From sequence record PZ445537.1: 45,054 bases of DNA; one strand, 5' to 3'. The notes below the pieces were generated by a model. That model did no database searches, was not told where the DNA came from, and saw only the letters and a list, made by a program, of their open reading frames with translations. Shown here in pieces: positions 3,752-39,347 of the stretch (the stretch's first letter is position 1; each line of letters begins with the position of its first letter). The translations under genes were made by a program, and so were the position numbers. The DNA is from a phage.

Positions 3752-4078
3752 ATGGCTAAGAACTATGCGCAGGACGGGAAAACGATCCCTCTGGTAAACG
3801 GCGGTGCAACCGATGTTCACAGCGGCGACCCGGTTGTTGTTGGAAAACTTATCGCGGTGGCAATTACCGATATCCCGGCTGGCGATACCGGGGACGGTTT
3901 TACTGAGGGTGTTTTCCTTCTGCCAAAAGTAACCGCAGATGCGGTTACTGCCGGGGCGCAGGTGTATCTGAAGGACGGCAAAATCACGATCGAAGAAACG
4001 GACGCCGTTGCCGCGGGCATCGCCTGGGAAGATGCAGGGGCAAACACCACCGTTGTTGAAGTTAAGATCAATGCCTAA
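3752..4078 (+). CDS. DUF2190-like small head protein (putative decoration/cement protein)
   Basis: 108 aa starting MAKNYAQDGKTIPLVNGG, Gly/Ala/Thr-rich; lies immediately after the capsid gene where lambda has D/FI. Family name is from memory. Confidence 0.6.
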   Translation: MAKNYAQDGKTIPLVNGGATDVHSGDPVVVGKLIAVAITDIPAGDTGDGFTEGVFLLPKVTADAVTAGAQVYLKDGKITIEETDAVAAGIAWEDAGANTTVVEVKINA

Positions 4079-5341: not shown

Positions 5342-6085
5342 ATGCCTACTCCAAACCCGCTGGCCCCCGTGAAAGGTGCCGGTACCACCCTCTGGCTTTA
5401 CACCGGAACGGGCAACGCTTTCGCTAACCCACTCTCGGATATCGACTGGAACCGCCTGGCGAAAATTAAAGAGCTGACGCCGGGCGAAATGACCGCCGAA
5501 TCGTATGACGACACTTACCTCGACGACGAGGATGCCGACTGGAACGCGACGGCCCAGGGGGCAAAATCTGCTGGCGATACCTCGTTCACCCTCGCCTGGA
5601 AGCCGGGCGAAGAAGGGCAAAAAGACCTTGTCGCATGGTTTATTGATGGCTCAGTACGTTATTACAAAATCAAATACCCGAACGGTACCGTCGACGTTTT
5701 CCGCGGCTGGTGCAGCAGCCTGGGTAAAGCCATTCCGGCAAAAGAGGTCATTACCCGTACAGCGAAAATCACCAATACCGGCAAGCCGGAACTGGCAGAA
5801 GAAAGCGGGACCCCGAATATCCCCGTGACCGGCGTTACGCTCGATAAAGCCACGGCAAGCGTGGCCGTCGGCGCAACCACAACGCTCAATGTGGCGGTTA
5901 ACCCTGCCAGTGCCTCAGATACCTCGTTCCGCGTGGCAACCTCCGACGGGGCAAAAGCAACGGTCACCGTTAGCGGCAACGCGATCACCGTCACCGGCGT
6001 GGCGGCAGGCACCGCTGACGTTATTGTTATGACCAGCGACGGTAATTTCGTTGCGGTCTGCAAAGTCACCGTAACTGCAGCGTAA
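5342..6085 (+). CDS. V: major tail protein gpV with C-terminal Ig-like domain
   Basis: 247 aa; N-terminus [18 protein letters not shown] and the [33 protein letters not shown] blocks match lambda gpV almost residue for residue; strong RBS AAGAGG. Confidence 0.95.
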
Positions 6086-11821: not shown

Positions 11822-12431
11822 GACGCTTATTCTCGAAGGGAAAATGGCTAAAAAATTCGGTAAACGCGTTCAGTTTGACGTTGCCGACCTGCGCGAAATG
11901 CTCAGGGCCATGTGTTCACAGGTTCCCGGATTCAAAAAATACATGTCGGAAGCTCATATGAAGGGGATCCGTTTCGCCTTTTTTAACGGCGACAACAATA
12001 TCGGGCTAGAAGAGTTTGATATGACCCGCGGTGGAAGCGTGTATCGGATCGTGCCCGTTTATGAGGGGGCCAAAAGTTCGGGCGTCCTTCAGATAGTTGT
12101 CGGCGCTGTTGCGCTGGTCGCTGCATTCTTTACCGCTGGTGCGAGCATGGCAGCCTGGGGGGCGGCCATGAGTGCAACAGCCATCAGCGCCACGTCAATT
12201 CTGACCGGGGTTGGGGTGTCAATGATGCTGGGCGGCGTTGTCCAGATGCTCACACCCCAGCCATCCTTCGGCGCGGGTAAATCCTCCAGCACGGACAACA
12301 CGCCTAACTATGCCTTCGGGGCGCCGGTCAATACCGTCGCTATGGGGCATCCTGTCCCCCTGGCCTACGGTCTGATCGAGGCTGGGGGAGCGATAGTCAG
12401 CGCCGGTATGTACTCGAGCGATCAGCAATAG
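11814..12431 (+). CDS. I: tail assembly protein gpI
   Basis: 205 aa from ATG 11814 (overlaps the K stop); the hydrophobic Gly/Ala block AGAKSSGVLQIVVGAVALVAAFFTAGASMAAWGAA...LGGVVQML matches lambda gpI. Confidence 0.85.
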   Translation: MVKTLILEGKMAKKFGKRVQFDVADLREMLRAMCSQVPGFKKYMSEAHMKGIRFAFFNGDNNIGLEEFDMTRGGSVYRIVPVYEGAKSSGVLQIVVGAVALVAAFFTAGASMAAWGAAMSATAISATSILTGVGVSMMLGGVVQMLTPQPSFGAGKSSSTDNTPNYAFGAPVNTVAMGHPVPLAYGLIEAGGAIVSAGMYSSDQQ

Positions 12432-12510
12432 TGAAATGCAACCGAATAAGATGAACGTTACATTGCAATCTCCCTTGGTTATCATGTCCAAAACGATGTC
12501 GATCAAGGAG

Positions 12511-12993
12511 ATGAAAGTGAAAAAATACGGTTTGGTCTTATTTGGTGTGCTCTTTATTTCAGGTTGTGCCCCACAAAATCAGAATAACAATTTACAAAAG
12601 CAATACGCTGATTTAGCAAATTGTGAAGATAACATTACGATGCCAAAACAAATGCCGCATAGTAAAAAGGAGTTTGCGGACTTTTTATCTAAGGCTGCGC
12701 TTAATGCCTCGGCAGATCAGTTTGTTATTCAGAAGCGTATAGAGATTCTTCAATTAGTTGGATGGGATAATTCGGTAGCTGATGCAATAACAACATGTAG
12801 CGCCACCAGAAAGAGCAAGCTTAAAGAAATTGGGGCGAATGTGTTTGAAACCATGAAAGCCAATACTAAAGACACAGAGGAACGTCGTGCTCTTGTTGAG
12901 GCTTATAGTTCGTGGGAAGCTTATGTAACCAGTCAAACGCCACTCGCAAAACAGGACTTTGACTCAAAAGTTAGTTATTACAAAAACATGTAA
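12511..12993 (+). CDS. lipoprotein moron (function unknown)
   Basis: Signal peptide with lipobox (MKVKKYGLVLFGVLFISGC); RBS AAGGAG at 12504-12509 (GTG 12517 is an alternative start); the gene is visibly AT-rich compared with flanking tail genes; inserted between I and J where lambda has none; own terminator follows. Confidence 0.7.
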   Translation: MKVKKYGLVLFGVLFISGCAPQNQNNNLQKQYADLANCEDNITMPKQMPHSKKEFADFLSKAALNASADQFVIQKRIEILQLVGWDNSVADAITTCSATRKSKLKEIGANVFETMKANTKDTEERRALVEAYSSWEAYVTSQTPLAKQDFDSKVSYYKNM

Positions 12994-13023
12994 TAAGACG
13001 CCATCATTAATACTAACAAATAA

Positions 13024-13045
13024 CCCAGCTCAGGCTGGGTTTTTT
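13024..13045 (+). terminator. intrinsic terminator after lipoprotein moron
   Basis: Perfect hairpin CCCAGC-TCAG-GCTGGG (13024-13039) followed by TTTTTT (13040-13045), directly before the J start. Confidence 0.65.
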
Positions 13046-13057
13046 AATGGGGTAAAA

Positions 13058-16000
13058 ATGCAACTTCTCCATGGTGAAACCATCATACAGGGTGCAAAAG
13101 GGGGCGGTGGAAGCGCGCATACTCCGGTTGAGCAACCTGACGATCTGCTGTCGGTCGCAAAATTAAAAATGCTCATTGCCGTTTCTGAGGGGGAAATACA
13201 GGGCGACCTGACCGCTCAGAATATTTTTCTCAACGATACGCCGCTGGCAAACGACAGCGGGGATTACAACTTCAGCGGCGTGAAATGGGAGTTCCGGAAG
13301 GGCACACAGGACCAGACCTATATTGCCGGGATGCCCCAGGTCGATAACGAGCTGGCGGTTGGCACAACTGTCACCACCACCGCGCCATGGACACGCCAGT
13401 TTACCAATCTTTCCCTGGATGCCATCCGCATCAAGCTCAGCCTTCCGGTCCAGTATCTCTATAAAGATAACGGCGATATGGTGGGCACGGTCACCGAGTA
13501 TGCGATCGATTTATCAACGGATGGCGGCGCCTGGAAAACGGTTGTAAACGGCAAGTTTGACGGAAAGACCACGACGGAATATCAGCGTGACCACCGTATC
13601 GATCTGCCAAAATCCACGTCCGGCTGGTCTGTCAGGGTCAGGCGTATTACGGCTGATGCCAGCGGATCAAATTCGAAACTGGTTAACGCCTTCAAGGTGT
13701 TTTCGTATGCAGAAGTCATCGACAGCAAGCTTCGTTATCCTTTAACCGCGCTCCTGTATGTCGAAGTGGACAGCAGCCAGTTCAACGGCAGCGCGCCGAA
13801 AGTGACCTGTAAGATAAAAGGCAAGCTGATTAAGGTTCCGGATAATTACGATCCGACAACCCGAACCTATTCTGGCTCATGGTCCGGCGGGTTCAAAATG
13901 GCCTGGTCCAATAACCCCGCCTGGATATTTTACGATCTGGTTCTGGATGAAATTTACGGCATGGGCACGCGCGTGGATGCGTCCATGGTGGATAAGTGGG
14001 CGCTGTATTCAATCGCCCAGTACTGTGACGAAATGGTTTCCGACGGGGCCGGTGGCACCGAACCGCGTTTCACCTGCAACGTTTTCATTCAGAGCCAGGA
14101 GGACGCCTGGCAGGTACTTAACGATCTCGCCGCGGTATTCCGTGGAATAACGTTCTGGGGCAACGATCAGATTTATGTCCAGGCAGACGTCCCGCAGGAC
14201 GATGTTGACTGGGTTTATAACGTCTCAAACGTTATCGATGGGCTGTTTACTTATGCGGGCGGCTCATACAAGAATCGCTACAGCTCCTGCCTGGTGTCCT
14301 GGTCCGATCCGCAGAACCATTACAGCGATACCGTTGAGGGGGTTTACGATTCGGCGCTTGTAGAACGTTACGACGTCCGGCAGACGTCCCTGACCGCAAT
14401 CGGCTGCACCTCGCAAAGTGAAGCGCACCGACGCGGTCGCTGGGTATTGCTCTCCAATGCCAAAGACGGGACCGTATCGTTTGGCGTGGGGCTGGACGGT
14501 TATATCCCTTTGCCCGCTGAAATTATCGGTGTCGCCGATCCTTTCCGCTCTGGTAAGGAGAACGGGGGCCGCATAAGCGCGGTCAACGGCCGCCAGATTA
14601 CCCTCGATCGAGAAGTAGACTACGCGGCGAAAGACCGGCTGGTGGTTAACCTTCCCGACGGAAAAGCCCAGACGCGGACAATCAGCGCGGTGAGCGCCGA
14701 TAAAAAAACGGTGACGGTGGCTACGGCATTCAGTCAGGTTCCTGTGGCGGGCGCTGTCTGGGCGATAGACAGTGATAACCTCGCAATACAGTACTTCAGG
14801 GTCACCTCAATCGCGGCTAACGACGACAGCACAGGCGGTTTCACTATTACGGCCGTTCAGCACGATCCAAACAAATATCGTTACATCGATGACGGCGTTC
14901 GGGTCGAGTCTCCCCCGATCACCGTCACGCCGATAAGCGTCCTGTCTGCTCCGGAGAATATCGTGGTGACTGAGAGCGATCATGTGTCTCAGGGGCTGAC
15001 TGTAGCAAGCCTGGACGTGTCATGGGATAAGGTAGAGGGCGCAATTCGGTATGTTGCCCAGTGGCGTAAGGACAACGGGGACTGGATAAACGTTCCGGTT
15101 ACCAGCGCGCAGGGTTTCTCGGTTCAGGGCATTTATTCGGGCAGCTATGACGTGCGCGTACGGGCGCTGAATGCGCAGGATACGTCGTCACCATGGGGAT
15201 ACGGTGAAACAACTTATCTCTCCGGTAAAACGGGAAAACCGGGTACTCCGCTCAACTTCCTGGCGACCGAAGATGTGGTCTGGCATATCGACCTGACCTG
15301 GAAATTTCCGGATGGCTCAGGCGACACGGCCTATACAGAGATTCAGCGCGCCACAACTGCCGACTACGCCAATCCTGAACTGCTGGTCCTGGTGCCGTAC
15401 CCGGCTGCAGATTATCAGCATGGCCCCATGCCTGCCGGCGTTCGCCAGTGGTACCGCGCGCGCCTGATTGACCGTATCGGTAACGCCGGGGACTGGACCG
15501 ACTGGATCATGGGCACGTCCTCGATAGATGTCAGCGAAATAACCAATGACATTCTGGAGGATATGAAAGAGTCGGAAACGTTTAAAGACCTGATCGAGAA
15601 TGCAGTGGACAGCAATGAAAAAATTGCTGGCATGGCTAACGATATCAAACAGGCCAACGACGAACTGGAGCAGCAGGCGAAGGATATCGCCAAAAATGCC
15701 CAGGACGTCGGGAAGGTTCAGACCAGCGTTAATGAGCTTTCGAGCACGGTCGGGAATGTTTCGTCTTCACTCAGTCAGCTTGAGCAGACCGTTGCGACGG
15801 CTGATACCGCCCTGGGCCAGCGAATCGACAACATCAGCGTTTCTATGGACGGCATGACGGGCGGGGTGAAGAACTCAGCCATTGCCATTATCCAGAACGG
15901 GCTAGCGCAGGTGGCTGCGCGTAAAACCCTTTCTGCATCGGTCGCCGGCAACAGCGCGAATCTGGACCGTATTGATGAGGTGATTGTCAACGACAGGGAG

Positions 16001-23177: not shown

Positions 23178-23249
23178 CGTGTAAATGTCGGGGATTATTC
23201 CCCCATTTTTCCCCAATGATTCCCCGTACAAATTTCAAACATAAAAAAA

Positions 23250-31401: not shown

Positions 31402-31573
31402 TCCGCATGACCAGTTTAACGGCTTTTAACCGTTTACCGCAACTCAGGATGATCCCGGTACCGGGCGCTCCGTTGTTTCGGTATGAACGCAGAATAGCAA
31501 ACCGCTGGGTGCCATGTAACCACAGTCGGGCGGTCGCAATTGTGGGGGTTTACTACAGGAAGGCGAAACGCTT

Positions 31574-31753
31574 ATGCGCGAAGTTAACCGAAGGTTCAAA
31601 GACCACAGAGGGATCCCCGTTCGGGTTATCAGGTGGGAGCCAGAGACTCAACGAGTTATCTACCTGCGGGACGGTTATGACCACGAATGTTTCAGCCCGC
31701 TCGAACAATTCAAGCGCAAGTTTACAGAGTTAAAGGACGACCATGAGCACTAA
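31574..31753 (+). CDS. small conserved prophage protein (DUF4222-like)
   Basis: 59-aa ORF missing from the track (under the size cut-off); protein-like sequence MREVNRRFKDHRGIPVRVIRWEPETQRVIYLRDGYDHECFSPLEQF; stop overlaps the O-like start (ATGAGCACTAA). Confidence 0.45.
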   Translation: MREVNRRFKDHRGIPVRVIRWEPETQRVIYLRDGYDHECFSPLEQFKRKFTELKDDHEH

Positions 31754-32597
31754 ATTAACGGGTTACGTTTGGGACGCTTGTGCCGCTTCTGGCATGAAGC
31801 TGTCCAGCGTTGCCATCATGGCGCGTCTGGCTGACTTCAGCAGTGATGAAGGGGTTAGCTGGCCTTCCATTGCTACCATCGCGCGCCAGATTGGTGCTGG
31901 TGAGAGCACGGTTCGCACAGCCATATCACAGCTGGAAAAAGACGGTTGGTTAACCCGCCAGCAGCGCCGTAAAGGCAACCGAAATGCATCGAACGTTTAC
32001 CAGCTCAATGTTGCGAAATTGCAGGCTGCTGCCTTTTCTCACCTGTCAGATTCTGACGCATCAAAATCTGATGCCTCAAAAACCGACGCGTCAATATCTG
32101 AGGCATCAAAAAACGATGAGAAAGGCGGTTTTCACCCGTCAGAATCTGGGGGGGATCCGTCAGTAAATACAACTACTGATCCATCAGTTAAAAAACCTTC
32201 TTGTCCGGTTGCGCCGCAACCAGACCCTGAAGTGACGATCACCGATAACGCCATCCTGGTTCTGAATCATTTGAACCTGGTTAGCGGCTCACGATACCAA
32301 AAATCAAAAACTTCTCTGGAAAACATCCGTGCTCGTTTGCGTGAAGGTTACACCGTTGGCGACTTACAGCTGGTGATTGACCTTAAGCATGAGCACTGGA
32401 ATGGCAATGACGTGCAGTACCAGTACATGCGCCCTGAAACGCTATTTGGCCCGAAAAAGTTTGAGGGTTATCTGCAAAGCGGGATCCGTTGGGACAAGAA
32501 GGGGCGTCCACCGCGCGAAAGCTGGGGTGAAAAGAAACACGATCCGATGAAGTTCGGTCCGGTTGATACCAAGATTCCAGAGGGGTTCAGAGGATGA
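31743..32597 (+). CDS. replication initiation protein (O-like; N-terminal HTH, conserved phage C-terminal domain)
   Basis: 284 aa; N-terminal winged-HTH segment; serine/aspartate-rich linker encoded by tandem repeats; conserved C-terminal block (GYTVGDLQLVIDLKHEHWNGN). Confidence 0.7.
   Translation: MSTKLTGYVWDACAASGMKLSSVAIMARLADFSSDEGVSWPSIATIARQIGAGESTVRTAISQLEKDGWLTRQQRRKGNRNASNVYQLNVAKLQAAAFSHLSDSDASKSDASKTDASISEASKNDEKGGFHPSESGGDPSVNTTTDPSVKKPSCPVAPQPDPEVTITDNAILVLNHLNLVSGSRYQKSKTSLENIRARLREGYTVGDLQLVIDLKHEHWNGNDVQYQYMRPETLFGPKKFEGYLQSGIRWDKKGRPPRESWGEKKHDPMKFGPVDTKIPEGFRG
32052..32111 (+). repeat. four tandem 15-bp iteron-like repeats (putative origin) inside the initiator gene
   Basis: TCTGACGCATCAAAA / TCTGATGCCTCAAAA / CCGACGCGTCAATAT / TCTGAGGCATCAAAA, each with internal dyad TGA-GC-TCA; encode the SDASK-repeat linker, as lambda ori iterons do within O. 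Confidence 0.55.
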
Positions 32598-33928
32598 ATG
32601 AAAATAAATACTGCCGCGCGCTGGCTGAACTGCGTTCAAGACCAGCCCACGAGTTGAAAGAGGTCGGCGATCAATGGCGCACTCCGGATCTGTTGTTTTG
32701 GGGTATCAATGCGATGTTCGGCCCTCTGGTGTTGGACCTTTTTGCCGACGACAGCAACGCGAAGTGCCCAGCATGGTATACGGCTGAAGATAATGCCCTG
32801 ACGCAGGATTGGTCAGAGCGTCTGGCAGAACTCGGTGGTGCCGGGTTTGGCAACCCGCCTTACAGCCGCTCTCAGTACCACGACAAGCAGGCCGTCACCG
32901 GAATGACCCACATCATTAACCACGCTATGGCAATGCGAGAAAAGGGTGGTCGGTACGTTTTTCTCATTAAGTCTGCGACGAGTGAAACGTGGTGGCCGGA
33001 AGAGGCAGATCACGTCACATTCATCCGTGGCCGAATTGGTTTCGATCTTCCTACATGGTTCGTGCCGAAAGACGAAAAGCAGCAGCCCACCAGCGCATTT
33101 TTTGCTGGCGCTATCGTGGTCTTCGACAAAACATGGCGGGGTGAGCGTTTCAGTTACATCAACCGTACCGACCTGGAGGCCAAAGGCCGTGCTTCGATGT
33201 TGCTGGCCCAGTTTGCAGTGGGAAGAACGCAAACTGATGCGGCGCCGGAGCTTGATGCTGAGGTAGTGCCGGAGAAATTAGAGGCAGAACTGCCATTAAC
33301 CCAAAAAGCCATTCTGGAAACCAGTGGTGTTGAGGCTTGGGCCTGTGTTGTCGCGGCGTTCGGCGAGAAAGATGAGTACACCTTCAGCGAGTCAAAGTTT
33401 GGTCATACCTGGGCTGCCGACTCTTTGGAAGACCCTGAATTTACCAATGTTTCACCGCTGACGATCGACAGAGCGAAAAAGCTGATCAGCGAGAGCATCC
33501 TGGTGGGTGTTAATGCATGGCTGGAAACATTGCGCTTTGATAGCGATGACGTGAAACAAGACATATCAGAGCGGTTACGCACGGTTGCCGTTGAGTCTGC
33601 GAAAGAATACGGCATTAACCACAGTGAATTCATCGCGACCATGGAAAGCCTGGATAAAGCCAAATGGTCAAATATTCGGGGGATCCGCGCCCATGTCCGT
33701 GAGACGCAGGAATCAAAGGACAAGGCGTTAAACGAATCGCGCGTTTGGCCTCTTGAGGTTGGACTGGTGTTTAACCAGATTGAAGGGGCTGACGCTCTAC
33801 CTGTTTCACAGCAGAACAAGCTGAAAGCCAATATCAACCAGCTGTGGCTCGAACGTATGCCGACGAGTGAAATTATCACGACCGCTGGTGGTCTCTTCAA
33901 CAGCATGCAGGGGGCCGTCAATGCGTGA
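32594..33928 (+). CDS. DNA N6-adenine methyltransferase (phage Dam-type) with C-terminal extension
   Basis: 444 aa; catalytic motif GNPPYS (DPPY-type) in the N-terminal half; C-terminal ~230 aa of unknown function. Confidence 0.8.
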   Translation: MNENKYCRALAELRSRPAHELKEVGDQWRTPDLLFWGINAMFGPLVLDLFADDSNAKCPAWYTAEDNALTQDWSERLAELGGAGFGNPPYSRSQYHDKQAVTGMTHIINHAMAMREKGGRYVFLIKSATSETWWPEEADHVTFIRGRIGFDLPTWFVPKDEKQQPTSAFFAGAIVVFDKTWRGERFSYINRTDLEAKGRASMLLAQFAVGRTQTDAAPELDAEVVPEKLEAELPLTQKAILETSGVEAWACVVAAFGEKDEYTFSESKFGHTWAADSLEDPEFTNVSPLTIDRAKKLISESILVGVNAWLETLRFDSDDVKQDISERLRTVAVESAKEYGINHSEFIATMESLDKAKWSNIRGIRAHVRETQESKDKALNESRVWPLEVGLVFNQIEGADALPVSQQNKLKANINQLWLERMPTSEIITTAGGLFNSMQGAVNA

Positions 33929-35858
33929 AATTATCGTTGATAACTTTGCTGGTGGCGGCGGCGCGAGTACCGGCATTGAACTGGCGATCGGGCGTAGCGT
34001 GGATATCGCTATCAACCACGACGAAAACGCTATTGCTATGCATAAGACGAATCACCCTGACACGCTGCATTATTGCGAGTCGGTGTTTGACGTTGACCCA
34101 AGCGCAGCCACCAGCGGTAAACCTGTCGGCCTGGCCTGGTTTAGCCCTGACTGCCGCCACTTTTCCAAAGCGAAGGGCGCTAAGCCAGTTAAGAAAGAGA
34201 TCCGCGGGCTGGCGTGGATTGTCCTGCGCTGGGCGCTGGCAGTACGTCCCCGAGTCATGATGCTGGAGAACGTCGAAGAATTTAAGACATGGGGCCCGCT
34301 GCTCGATGAAGAATTACGCCCGGATCCTGAGCGTGCTGGTGAAACATTCGAGGCATTTGTCGGCATGCTGTCGACTGGTATCGCGGCGAATCACCCAGCA
34401 CTGGCTGAGGTTTGCGAATTTCTTGCCATTGAGCCGCACGGCCTGCAGGCGCAACAGCTGACCGCCGGGCTTGGCTATGAGGTCGATTATCGTGAGCTGC
34501 GCGCTTGTGACTACGGCGCGCCGACGATCAGAAAGCGTTTCTTCATGGTCATGCGCTGTGACGGCCGCAAGATTCATTGGCCTGAAGCGACTCATGGGGA
34601 TCCAAAATCACTGGAAGTACAAAGCGGCAAGCTGGCGCCATGGCGTACCGCGGCGGAGTGCATTGACTGGAATATCCCGGCCCGGTCCATCTTCGATCGC
34701 AAAAAGCCGCTGGCGGAAAATACGCTCAAACGTATCGCGCGCGGCATCCAGCGCTTTGTTATCGAAAGCGCATCACCTTTCATCGTGAAGTGTAACCACA
34801 CCACGACGAAAGGAGGTTATGACTGTTTCCGCGGGCAATCGTTGTTAGAGCCATTGCAGACCATCACTAAAAAGCATGGCTACGCGCTGGCGGTACCGCA
34901 TCTTACTAAATTCCGCACTGGGGCCACCGGGCAGCCAGTGACCGAGCCGGTTCCAACTGTCACCGCTGGTACGTCGGCGCGCCCTGGCGGGAATGGGCAT
35001 GCGCTTGGCGTAGTTGAGGCCGCCCTGACACCGTTCCTGGCTGGCAATGGCGGCAGTGAGTACCAGGCAAAGCCGCGCCCACTGGATAAACCCGCTCATA
35101 CAGTCCTCAAGCAGTCCCGCGCGTGCGTGGTTGCGCCGGTCATCGCCCGCCAGTTTGGTGCCAGTGTTGGGCACAGGGCTGACGAACCGAGCGCGACGAT
35201 TACTGCAGGTGGTGGCGGTAAGTCGCAGCTGGTAACTCCAACACTCATCCAGATGGGGTACGGCGAACGCCCAGGGCAAGAACCGCGTGTTCTTCAACTG
35301 AATAACCCGCTCGGCACGGTCACTGCTGGTGGTAATAAGTTTGCAACGGTGAGCGCGTTCCTGGCGAAGCACTATGGTGGGAATTACACGGGGCCGGGTG
35401 TTGGTATGGATGAGCCTGCCCACTCAGTCACTACTGTTGATCACCACGCGGTAGTTGCGTCGCACCTGGTGAAGCTGCGCGGAACCTGCCGCGACGGTCA
35501 GACCATGGACACACCTATGCCGACGATTACCGCTGGTGGCCAGCACGTTGGCGAGGTCCGGACATTCCTCGAAACCTACTGCGGTGATAGCGAGGATGAA
35601 TGGCTGGTGACGATCGAGGGGGTTAAGTACCAGATCGTCGATATCGGAATGCGCATGCTTCAACCGCATGAGCTTTATAAGGCGCAGGGCTTCCCTGACG
35701 GCTACGTTATCGATCAGGACTATCGCGGCAATCGTTACGCCAAAGACAAGCAGGTAGCGCGCTGCGGTAACGCAGTACCGCCGCCGTTCGCTCGTGCGCT
35801 GGTAGAAGCAAATCTTCCTGAATTATGTGTAAATCAAAAGGCGGGTGCAGCCGCCTGA
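33921..35858 (+). CDS. DNA cytosine-5 methyltransferase with long C-terminal domain
   Basis: 645 aa from ATG 33921 (overlaps the Dam stop); motif I FAGGGG, catalytic PC (SPDCRHFS), ENV (MLENVEEF); C-terminal half has repeated T(I/V)TAGG-like segments. Confidence 0.85.
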   Translation: MREIIVDNFAGGGGASTGIELAIGRSVDIAINHDENAIAMHKTNHPDTLHYCESVFDVDPSAATSGKPVGLAWFSPDCRHFSKAKGAKPVKKEIRGLAWIVLRWALAVRPRVMMLENVEEFKTWGPLLDEELRPDPERAGETFEAFVGMLSTGIAANHPALAEVCEFLAIEPHGLQAQQLTAGLGYEVDYRELRACDYGAPTIRKRFFMVMRCDGRKIHWPEATHGDPKSLEVQSGKLAPWRTAAECIDWNIPARSIFDRKKPLAENTLKRIARGIQRFVIESASPFIVKCNHTTTKGGYDCFRGQSLLEPLQTITKKHGYALAVPHLTKFRTGATGQPVTEPVPTVTAGTSARPGGNGHALGVVEAALTPFLAGNGGSEYQAKPRPLDKPAHTVLKQSRACVVAPVIARQFGASVGHRADEPSATITAGGGGKSQLVTPTLIQMGYGERPGQEPRVLQLNNPLGTVTAGGNKFATVSAFLAKHYGGNYTGPGVGMDEPAHSVTTVDHHAVVASHLVKLRGTCRDGQTMDTPMPTITAGGQHVGEVRTFLETYCGDSEDEWLVTIEGVKYQIVDIGMRMLQPHELYKAQGFPDGYVIDQDYRGNRYAKDKQVARCGNAVPPPFARALVEANLPELCVNQKAGAAA

Positions 35859-38553: not shown

Positions 38554-39099
38554 ATGCTTTCTCTGGAAGAAGTAGCTCAACAAACCTATAACACCCTCCA
38601 GGCATACATGGATCATCGTGAGATAGATCTAGCAGTCGGTCCGCTTTCTTTTAATGATACTAGTTCCCTCATAAGAGCTTATGGTGAACTTAACTGGGAA
38701 TACTATGTAACCTCAGTAGGTAATGACCCGGATTGTTTCAGTTTATGTATTAAACTAATAACTTCTAAAGAGCATAAACTTGTTGATGATTACCCAGCGG
38801 GTGTGGCATTGTGCACCTACCATCACGGTAGCAGTAGGTTTGATATACATGCAGTTGAGAACTTCGTGAAGGATAGTGAAGATCATCCATTGCGTCGTAA
38901 GATGATTTTGTATACATTATACGCCGCCGTTATCTTCATGAAGCAAGTTGATGGTACTGAGGTTCGTATCATTGAACCAGTGGAAGAAAAGATTGATTAC
39001 TATCGGACCTTTGGGTTTGAAATGTCAGATAGTTGCTCTTATGTTATGACTTGTAGTCTTGATAGGCTGATGAGATACATGGCTGAAAGAGATGCTTAA
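38554..39099 (+). CDS. AT-rich cargo gene, hypothetical (possible GNAT-like fold)
   Basis: 181 aa from ATG 38554 (track start 38542 is TTG); the gene is visibly AT-rich compared with the rest of the genome; weak GNAT-like C-terminal pattern (HPLRRKMIL…IDYYRTFGFE); between Q-like gene and lysis cassette. Confidence 0.55.
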   Translation: MLSLEEVAQQTYNTLQAYMDHREIDLAVGPLSFNDTSSLIRAYGELNWEYYVTSVGNDPDCFSLCIKLITSKEHKLVDDYPAGVALCTYHHGSSRFDIHAVENFVKDSEDHPLRRKMILYTLYAAVIFMKQVDGTEVRIIEPVEEKIDYYRTFGFEMSDSCSYVMTCSLDRLMRYMAERDA

Positions 39100-39347
39100 T
39101 CATCATCCCATAAGTTAGCGGGTACATTGTAATTGTGTTATAGTGTACTCAAGTTTAAGCACTAGATACCGAAGAACTAGATGGCAGCTACCATCTATGT
39201 CAATCGCTCAAAGCTATGGCAATGAGTGGCTCAAGTATCGAGATGCTTCTTGCATGTAGTAGTAACATGAACATGTGAACTTCAGCACGCATGTTGTTAC
39301 ACGAAATGCATGTTCACTCTGGAACAATGCTTCCGAAGAGGTGATGT

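Follow-up and report, generated by a model that had tools for sequence, protein, structure and literature searches.

Where does a lambdoid-type phage begin to copy its genome, and can the starting point lie inside the gene of its own replication initiator? The question is raised by a run of short tandem repeats in a phage DNA of 45,054 nucleotides (record PZ445537.1; this whole stretch is called the window below). The repeats lie in the initiator gene, which occupies positions 31743-32597 on the plus strand and encodes 284 residues (open reading frame (ORF) list, Pfam and PHROG). That an origin may be located within the initiator gene is a textbook principle, and the original prediction for this locus had interpreted the repeats as iterons of such an origin, comparable to those in gene O of phage lambda. 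We find this interpretation supported, since each computational test that was able to contradict it favoured it, and we put the probability that the repeats are the iterons of the phage replication origin, like ori-lambda in gene O, at roughly three in four. The origin is favoured by constraint at the DNA level, by a repeat cluster that is unique in the genome and located in the linker of the initiator, by an adjoining A+T-rich tract and palindrome, by copy-number variation and by natural fusions. From these observations we infer that the initiator binds the repeats, that the DNA is unwound there, that a helicase is recruited and that the site acts as an origin.

The initiator gene is 100% identical to positions 12299-13153 of Escherichia phage Eeyore (PP925821.1), a lambdoid-type temperate phage, and its start at 31743 in the window and at 12299 in that record indicates that the window is a circular permutation of PP925821.1. 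GenBank names the Eeyore product 'primosomal protein', RefSeq calls the relatives 'conserved phage C-terminal domain-containing protein', and the PHROG labels are 'replication initiation O-like', 'primosomal protein' and 'replication initiation protein'. The protein belongs to the HTH_36 plus Phg_2220_C class, with both domains above their gathering thresholds and in the right order: HTH_36 at residues 23-70 (1.5e-9, 37.9 bits, cut-off 25) and Phg_2220_C at residues 173-245 (7.7e-23, 80.8 bits, cut-off 27). The N-terminal winged-helix domain (coding region 31743-32033, plus strand) is presumed to bind the iterons, and the Phg_2220_C domain (32259-32477, plus strand) is presumed to recruit the host replisome. 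Database searches found 2451 relatives of the initiator; in relatives the recognition-helix and wing residues S55, T56, R58, R75, R76, G78, N79, R80 and N81 are invariant or nearly so. Pfam DnaD_N reaches 24.6 bits, under its cut-off of 27, and the PHROG 'DnaD-like helicase loader' matches are weak (N part 7.3e-7; phrog_1701 on residues 152-251, E 3.5e-6). No related solved structures were found beyond winged-helix regulators. In the AlphaFold2 model, which was built from a shallow 18-sequence alignment and has a mean pLDDT (predicted local distance difference test) of 49, the C-domain is helical (pLDDT 65-85 across roughly residues 160-220), while residues 103-161 (pLDDT 27-36) have no secondary structure and are predicted to form a disordered linker.

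The four 15-bp tandem units at 32052-32111 were confirmed with Tandem Repeats Finder (period 15, 4.0 copies, 73% matches, score 71). With a period of 30 the score of this stretch rises to 89, the top tandem-repeat score of the 45-kb window. The units read TCTGACGCATCAAAA, TCTGATGCCTCAAAA, ACCGACGCGTCAATA and TCTGAGGCATCAAAA, against a family consensus of TCTGA-ynCn-TCA(A/G)A(A/T), and are translated in frame with the ORF 31743-32597 as SDASK-SDASK-TDASI-SEASK. These are residues 104-123, between HTH_36 and Phg_2220_C, so that the array encodes the linker between the helix-turn-helix N-terminus and the C-terminal domain, as had been proposed. A count of four is correct for the canonical array, but the repeat search brings the total to five contiguous units and an isolated one. 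The additional contiguous copy is a degenerate leading unit, TCTCACCTGTCAGAT, at 32037-32051, identified by the repeat search (copy from 32036/32037), the motif search and its codons, which in relatives are TCT 41/41, TCA 50/50 and GAT 39/39. Together with the next unit it forms a perfect palindrome, TCAGATTCTGA, at 32046-32056. The isolated sixth unit, TTTCACCCGTCAGAA with the half-site TCTGG, lies at 32130-32149 (repeat-search copy 32129-32148, and a motif match); its core, TCAGAATCTGG, is located at 32139-32149, and the unit is near-invariant across 76 aligned relatives.

A TGA-N4-TCA dyad had been claimed for every unit. It is present in three of the four and absent from the third, which has CGA instead. 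The half-sites TCTGA and TCA[A/G]A alternate along the array with centre-to-centre distances of 9 bp and 6 bp, and next to the within-unit dyad, TCTGA-N4-TCAAA, there is a junction-spanning dyad, TCA[A/G]A-W-TCTGA, that is equally good or better. The core TCARAWTCTGR has four matches at three sites in the window (32046, 32061 and 32139), all inside 32046-32149; 0.14 matches are expected by chance in 45 kb, and none of 100 shuffles reached four. Tandem Repeats Finder also reported 23194-23225 (11 bp x 2.9, ATTATTCCCCA) and, at 3850-3890 and 5957-5998, two repeats of 21 bp x 2 each.

Are these repeats maintained as protein or as DNA? We sampled initiator homologues from 8 phages (including SfII, phiNP, YeP1 and four other Klebsiella or Escherichia phages) and from 78 genome loci, which are Enterobacterales prophages with N-domains 64-100% identical to that of the window; a ninth phage, 118970_sal3, has the C-terminal module alone in common. 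The unit matrix, derived from 390 units in 75 distinct arrays, is T-C-T-G-A-y-n-C-n-T-C-A-(A/G)-A-(A/T). Eleven of its positions carry 1.1-2.0 bits, whereas the four central ones (6-9), where the original prediction had placed a 'GC' dyad centre, carry 0.4-0.8 bits and are the least conserved part of the unit family-wide. Serine in first position is encoded by TCT (261) or TCC (20) and never by TCA, TCG or AGY, and serine in fourth position by TCA (335) or TCG (36) and never by TCT, TCC or AGY. Lysine in fifth position uses AAA 242 times and AAG 0 times, and glutamate GAA 63 times and GAG 0 times. Residue 1 itself differs radically between units (S, F, A, P, T, I, Y, V), yet the last base of its codon is T in 357/390 units and C in 33/390. 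Neither protein-level selection nor codon bias can produce such a pattern.

The same conclusion was reached with a codon-entropy scan, in which normalised codon entropy was measured at conserved residues of a codon-threaded alignment of 79 distinct sequences. The mean is 0.79 in the N-domain, where synonymous sites are saturated (four-/six-fold sites 1.5-2.4 bits), drops to 0.24 (median 0.12) over codons 98-161, corresponding to 32034-32225, and is back to 0.73 in the C-domain (Mann-Whitney, codons 98-161 versus N-domain p = 4.6e-20, versus C-domain p = 6e-9). Frozen codons in this stretch include Ser TCA (79/79), Val GTA (78/78), Asp GAT (79/79) and Phe TTT (77/77), and unrepeated parts of the linker, e.g. 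GAT CCG TCA GTA, are frozen to the same degree. Gly136, inside the element, is free (GGC 34, GGG 29, GGT 9, GGA 4); because this codon and unit positions 6-9 are saturated, the element is constrained rather than young or recently shared by descent. The ~190-bp linker-coding stretch is conserved as DNA, not as protein, and is a cis-acting element. We propose it, with the limits given by the codon-entropy footprint (32034-32225), as the replication origin. The span of 69 bp previously assigned to the iterons (32046-32114) contains real repeats but covers only about one third of the constrained element. The lambda O family was not feasible as a positive control for this analysis: among viral loci the 80 best all match lambda O at 99-100% identity, the phage collection splits into two groups (at least 90% and at most 67% identical, the latter with changed specificity), and no set in these loci or this collection combined saturated synonymous sites with lambda-type iterons.

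In the orientation of the gene, the element consists of the degenerate unit, the four canonical units, the isolated unit, the GATC repeats, the A+T-rich tract and the palindrome. The two GATC-headed direct repeats (32154-32191; sequence and alignment), GATCCGTCAGTAAA at 32154 and GATCCATCAGTTAA at 32178, are 24 bp apart; the GAT of the first is kept in 79/79 relatives and that of the second in 70/79, and the 24-bp unit is duplicated in P0095 and occurs three times in L075. The A+T-rich tract (32160-32199, from the composition profile), a candidate unwinding region, has 70% A+T; its GC fraction of 0.30 is the minimum of the gene and of 31700-32650, and its A-run, TAAAAAA, is kept in relatives. 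The repeat search located the palindrome, GTCCGGTTGCG-c-CGCAACCAGAC, 23 bp with arms of 11 nt that are 91% complementary, at 32203-32225, the junction between the N-module and the C-module. Across 53 relatives its pairing is retained in 84% of cells, compared with 19-38% when the partner is slid. Both sides have changed in 5/10 pairs, the covariation score is attained by 0/500 shuffles, and compensatory pairs (GGTTGC/GCAACC, GGTTTC/GAAACC, CTGC/GCAG) occur despite a changed encoded peptide. RNA elements, promoters and DnaA boxes were rejected as components: comparison of the element with Rfam gave no match at E <= 1, no promoter-like site was found in it, and it contains no DnaA box, the only two consensus matches in the window being distant (24994 and 29238).

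The GATC sites inside the element are 32154-32157 and 32178-32181. The window as a whole has 212 such sites versus 176 expected, with no extra clustering in the element. A Dam-family methyltransferase gene directly follows the initiator gene here, and in the related phages examined it follows directly or one gene on. Control of the proposed origin by methylation of the two GATC sites is conceivable.

A check asked for in the original prediction, whether the iteron copy number varies among relatives, gave a positive answer. Among 80 relatives the number of units ranges from 2 to 9 and is most often 5, which is also the number for the window when counted in this way, and the array is present in all relatives with the window's N-domain. 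Proteins at least 96% identical to that of the window are 274, 279 or 284 residues long and differ by exact pentapeptide units, and one 292-residue variant has a duplicated 8-residue (24-bp) GATC unit. The same 483-nt query spans 483, 498, 513 or 528 bp, near-identical Klebsiella/Escherichia phages being 0, 1, 2 or 3 units longer. With regard to bacterial genomes, the E. coli ECONIH4 chromosome has an initiator copy that is 95.7% identical with 30 extra bp, a prophage shared by E. coli Nissle 1917 and the strains engineered from it has this initiator type at 78% nucleotide identity, and matches were found in 37/5426 complete E. coli genomes, 32 of the 37 covering at least 80% of the query.

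Homology in phages falls into two blocks, gene nt 1-483 (N-domain plus element) and nt 447-855 (palindrome plus C-domain), and the palindrome falls in their overlap. Based on these blocks, the element and the N-domain are passed on together, as expected of a module that sets specificity. This pair occurs with two types of C-domain, one of which, seen in SfII and Providencia prophages, is homologous to the C-terminal domain of lambda O (E = 7e-26 and 2e-29). Conversely, Salmonella phage 118970_sal3 (L009:2795-2915) joins the same Phg_2220_C C-module and palindrome to an unrelated N-terminal domain without a Pfam match, and its linker has repeats of its own, CCAGATTGCGG x2 and AATGTGGAAACnCCGCAA x2, encoding NVETPQ twice. 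In Providencia/Proteus loci (L053:2965-2996, L055, L057, L059, L062, L070, L073, L074 and L086) the window's N-module is accompanied by the palindrome TTCGTCGCAGAATTCTG(A/G)CGAATCC; the C-terminal domain there is 39% identical to that of lambda O, and no P gene follows it in the related phages examined. The most divergent relatives, at 64-66% N-domain identity, are from Proteus (L075:2501-3385, L078 and L080) and have about two units of (T/C)CAGATTCTGACCGT and three copies of a 24-bp GATCCACAAGTAAATTCAAAACAT unit. In L075 the region of the isolated unit comprises three copies of a 33-bp unit containing CCAGAATCTGG. These arrangements suggest that different parts of the element can assume the repeated role.

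Repetition of the linker extends well beyond the close relatives. A search with the N-domain over 1.84 billion cluster representatives returned 3767 relatives at E <= 1e-3, and 60 full-length representatives among the best 150 were tested for periodicity. Significant tandem periodicity was detected in 27/60 in residues 89-188, compared with 1/60 in residues 1-88 and 0/50 in residues 189-288. The linker periods are 4-15 residues long, and different lineages have unrelated peptides (e.g. QGPxSGxS, GGDQVITRGVITRSP and HHDGDPRSP). To judge from these proteins, the conserved trait is linker repetition itself and not any particular peptide. Iterons specific to each lineage predict repetition with unrelated peptides, and the observed pattern thus fits the iteron interpretation.

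How does the proposed origin compare with those already described? Binding sites for the initiator within its own gene occur in P22 gene 18, phi80, 82 and SPP1 oriL (gene 38), with specificity inherited along with the N-terminal domain; P22 (gp12), SPP1 (G40P) and their kin encode a helicase or loader beside the initiator, whereas the phage of the window has neither. The closest likeness is to ori-lambda (39034-39160), located in the middle of gene O, in which four 18-bp iterons are followed by a 38-bp high-AT tract (PMC3349717). Both lie within the gene, as the original prediction had it, and in the part encoding the linker; in both, iterons, A+T-rich tract and palindrome follow in the same order and with the same polarity relative to the gene. 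Of the features typical of ori-lambda, the window shows at least three direct repeats with a dyad in the linker, an A+T-rich tract on the 3' side, DNA-level selection and inheritance with the N-module, and lacks the adjoining helicase or loader partner gene. Several direct repeats with internal dyad symmetry are likewise present in ori-lambda and its close relatives (434, 21, Stx phages 933W and P27). In lambda-type phages, as in the window's group, iteron number varies between relatives and alters protein length, the Stx phages having six iterons versus four in lambda and 13 extra residues in O (PMC7466680). The Providencia palindrome, TTCGTCGCAGAATTCTGACGAATCC, is almost that found to the right of the lambda AT tract, TTCGTCAGAGAATTCTGGCGAATCC (39155-39180; L089:856-885).

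The differences are also clear. The iterons of the window are 15 bp and strictly head-to-tail, while those of lambda are 18 bp with spacers of 2-6 bp. The N-domain is Pfam HTH_36, not Phage_rep_O, and the C-domain is Phg_2220_C; unlike ori-lambda, the element has two extra GATC-headed 24-bp repeats, and there is no P-type or other loader gene. DopC, a lambda-O-like protein that has been domesticated in Cellvibrionales and Oceanospirillales, resembles the protein studied here in its HTH_36-type N-terminal domain, which comes from phage initiators, but has lost the iterons and Phg_2220_C and always adjoins a P-like gene, whereas the window's gene keeps both without P (PMC5509034). In the same paper HHpred finds that lambda O combines HTH_36 and Phg_2220_C, a result not reproduced in our analysis; if it is true, the window's protein would be a remote homologue of O in both domains (PMC5509034). 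Theta plasmids (pSC101, R6K, RK2, P1, pPS10) likewise have direct arrays of Rep sites beside an A+T-rich region, with copy number and sequence setting specificity, but their iterons are 17-22 bp long and phased at about two helical turns, and they lie outside rep, usually near DnaA boxes. The 15-bp spacing, the coding array and the absence of a nearby DnaA box set the window apart from this type. The kind of origin proposed is already known, an in-gene iteron origin of a lambdoid initiator, here with another N-domain family, iterons of 15 bp placed head-to-tail, and no loader.

Constraint at the DNA level is by itself silent on the function that is selected, and the element could be a cis-acting site for the initiator or some other protein that has another purpose: the initiator might be titrated there or regulate its own gene, related phages might be excluded or made incompatible, or a conserved boundary might promote the exchange of modules, the true origin being elsewhere. 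The palindrome lies exactly in the overlap of the homology blocks and is common to initiators with other N-domains, and cloned lambda iterons inhibit replication in trans (PMC3349717), both of which would suit such a site. We nevertheless consider it unlikely. Neither a second repeat cluster nor another A+T-rich region with iterons nor a DnaA-box origin candidate was seen, and position, order and polarity match those of the experimentally defined ori-lambda (PMC3349717, PMC7466680); moreover, a plain boundary would not need 5-6 half-site pairs of varying number. Given the lambda-like architecture and the lack of another candidate, a non-origin element is less parsimonious than an origin.

Two further explanations dispense with a replication site altogether. 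The array might be nothing but a slippage-prone disordered linker, an SDxSK repeat under protein-level selection if any, with units that resemble one another through recent duplication. The predicted disorder of residues 103-161 agrees with this, as do the free change of copy number in whole pentapeptides and the fact that all units are in frame, but it is very improbable in view of synonymous sites that are frozen while those of the flanking domains are saturated. The disjoint serine codon sets, the avoidance of AAG and GAG, the third base that is kept where residue 1 varies, the equally frozen codons of the unrepeated linker, and the retention of tandem repetition with unrelated peptides in distant relatives all argue in the same direction. 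Alternatively, the synonymous constraint might come from an overlapping gene in another frame, a structured RNA or an embedded promoter. Two frames are indeed open through the array, 31984-32166 on the plus strand (60 aa) and 32005-32172 on the minus strand (55 aa), yet in relatives the alternative frames stay open only over short stretches of varying length (median 171 nt, minimum 21 nt; a comparison that is firm for the plus strand only), which do not span the 192-bp block. An overlapping gene was rejected on account of these short and inconsistent stretches. The lack of an Rfam match and of a promoter-like site speaks against RNA and promoter, and repeated inverted half-sites are the signature of protein-binding DNA, so that we find this last explanation hardly credible.

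Several points weigh against an origin of the lambda type at this locus. Searchable literature yielded no experiments on initiator binding or origin activity in this phage group; the papers on the SfIV and SfI genomes say nothing of an origin, and on Phg_2220_C origins we found nothing apart from the DopC paper. The initiator does not match PF04492 (Phage_rep_O) at E <= 0.01, lambda O itself matching PF04492 alone, and its comparison with lambda O gave a BLASTP E of 0.58 and an hhalign probability of 0.3, the latter being a weak test because the profile is shallow (Neff 1.2). In the absence of direct similarity between the two proteins, the lambda analogy rests on architecture and on the chimeric relatives. 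Because the AlphaFold2 model is poor, the fold of the N-domain rests solely on the Pfam matches. The register of the dyad, within units or across junctions, is not separable by sequence, the isolated unit fitting both. A spacing of 15 bp without spacers is unusual compared with lambda (18 bp, 20-24 bp spacing) and plasmids (~22 bp), and the A+T-rich tract is modest (40 bp) and weaker than the 38-bp high-AT tract of lambda (PMC3349717). Finally, no loader is present that would account for helicase recruitment.

The last point deserves attention. The observation that no helicase or loader gene follows the initiator was correct: the genes downstream encode two methyltransferases, one of the Dam family and one of the C5 type, and an antirepressor. 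Across the whole genome neither the annotation nor our searches revealed a helicase, loader, primase or polymerase, and in eight related phages rep is likewise not followed by a helicase or loader gene. Phage phiNP, with the same gene order and rep type and without a loader, replicates on induction (bioRxiv 10.1101/2025.01.01.630987). We infer that the C-domain recruits host DnaB, probably with DnaC; the two small conserved ORFs upstream of the initiator may be replication helpers.

A possible course of events is as follows. After prophage induction or infection, rightward early transcription (cro, the cII-like gene, the small ORFs and rep) would supply the initiator, whose N-terminal winged-helix domain would bind the alternating TCTGA / TCA(A/G)A half-sites of the five contiguous units and the isolated sixth. 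Binding would build a multimeric nucleoprotein complex on the units, and this complex would destabilise the adjoining 40-bp A+T-rich tract. The C-terminal Phg_2220_C (DnaD-like) domain would then recruit the replicative helicase, presumably that of the host because the phage encodes neither helicase nor loader. The palindrome at the right edge would mark the boundary of the origin module and may be a structural element or a recombination joint. Since the array is also coding sequence, slippage by one unit would lengthen or shorten a disordered linker by a pentapeptide and be harmless to the protein.

A bolder version, which we regard as doubtful, is a self-sufficient single-protein origin, in which the initiator reads its own translated iterons and delivers host DnaB through its Phg_2220_C/DnaD-like domain with no phage loader. 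If so, the dual-coded array would be a fast evolutionary dial: each slippage event would alter the number of binding sites and at the same time the length of the disordered tether that joins the DNA-binding to the recruiting domain, and the two GATC sites with the adjoining Dam-family methylase could add methylation control of firing.

The early right operon runs from a cI-like repressor (minus strand) through a cro-like gene, a cII-like gene and two small ORFs to the initiator, and continues with the genes of the Dam-family and C5 methyltransferases, the antirepressor and a DUF968 protein, and then Q. Immediately upstream of the initiator, two ORFs overlap in different frames, 31407-31733 and 31574-31753 (both plus strand), each with a family match. 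The first (108 aa; phrog_1170 at 3.7e-17) is the one annotated in Eeyore, and a hypothetical ORF of similar size sits at its position in SfII and KpF5; the second (59 aa; Pfam DUF4222 at 2.7e-18) is annotated by RefSeq in E. coli prophages. Either one of these calls is spurious or both are real. In the Dam-family protein (32594-33928, plus strand, 444 aa) the Pfam Dam domain is confined to residues 19-199, and the 245-residue C-terminal extension has no Pfam match. Its GenBank product name, 'phosphoadenosine phosphosulfate reductase', appears to derive from the best PHROG label, phrog_33262, a match that covers the methyltransferase domain. The C5-cytosine methyltransferase (33867-35858, plus strand, 663 aa) is about twice the usual length, with the Pfam DNA_methylase match in three stretches. 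With its listed GTG start it shares 62 bp with the end of the Dam gene; in the Eeyore annotation it starts at window position 33921, with an overlap of 8 bp.

The analysis places a probable origin at base-pair resolution for a widespread group of temperate Enterobacterales phages, which includes the SfII/SfIV/SfV-type serotype-converting phages of Shigella, Citrobacter rodentium phiNP, Klebsiella prophages and a prophage of E. coli Nissle 1917, and in whose records the gene is named merely 'O-like', 'primosomal' or 'GntR family' protein. The element also provides an example of dual coding, ~190 bp in which selection on DNA outweighs codon choice. It would be worth asking by experiment how the host helicase is loaded when there is no P-like or DnaC-like partner, and the combination of tandem repeats in the linker with frozen synonymous sites could mark origins in thousands of HTH_36-type initiators.

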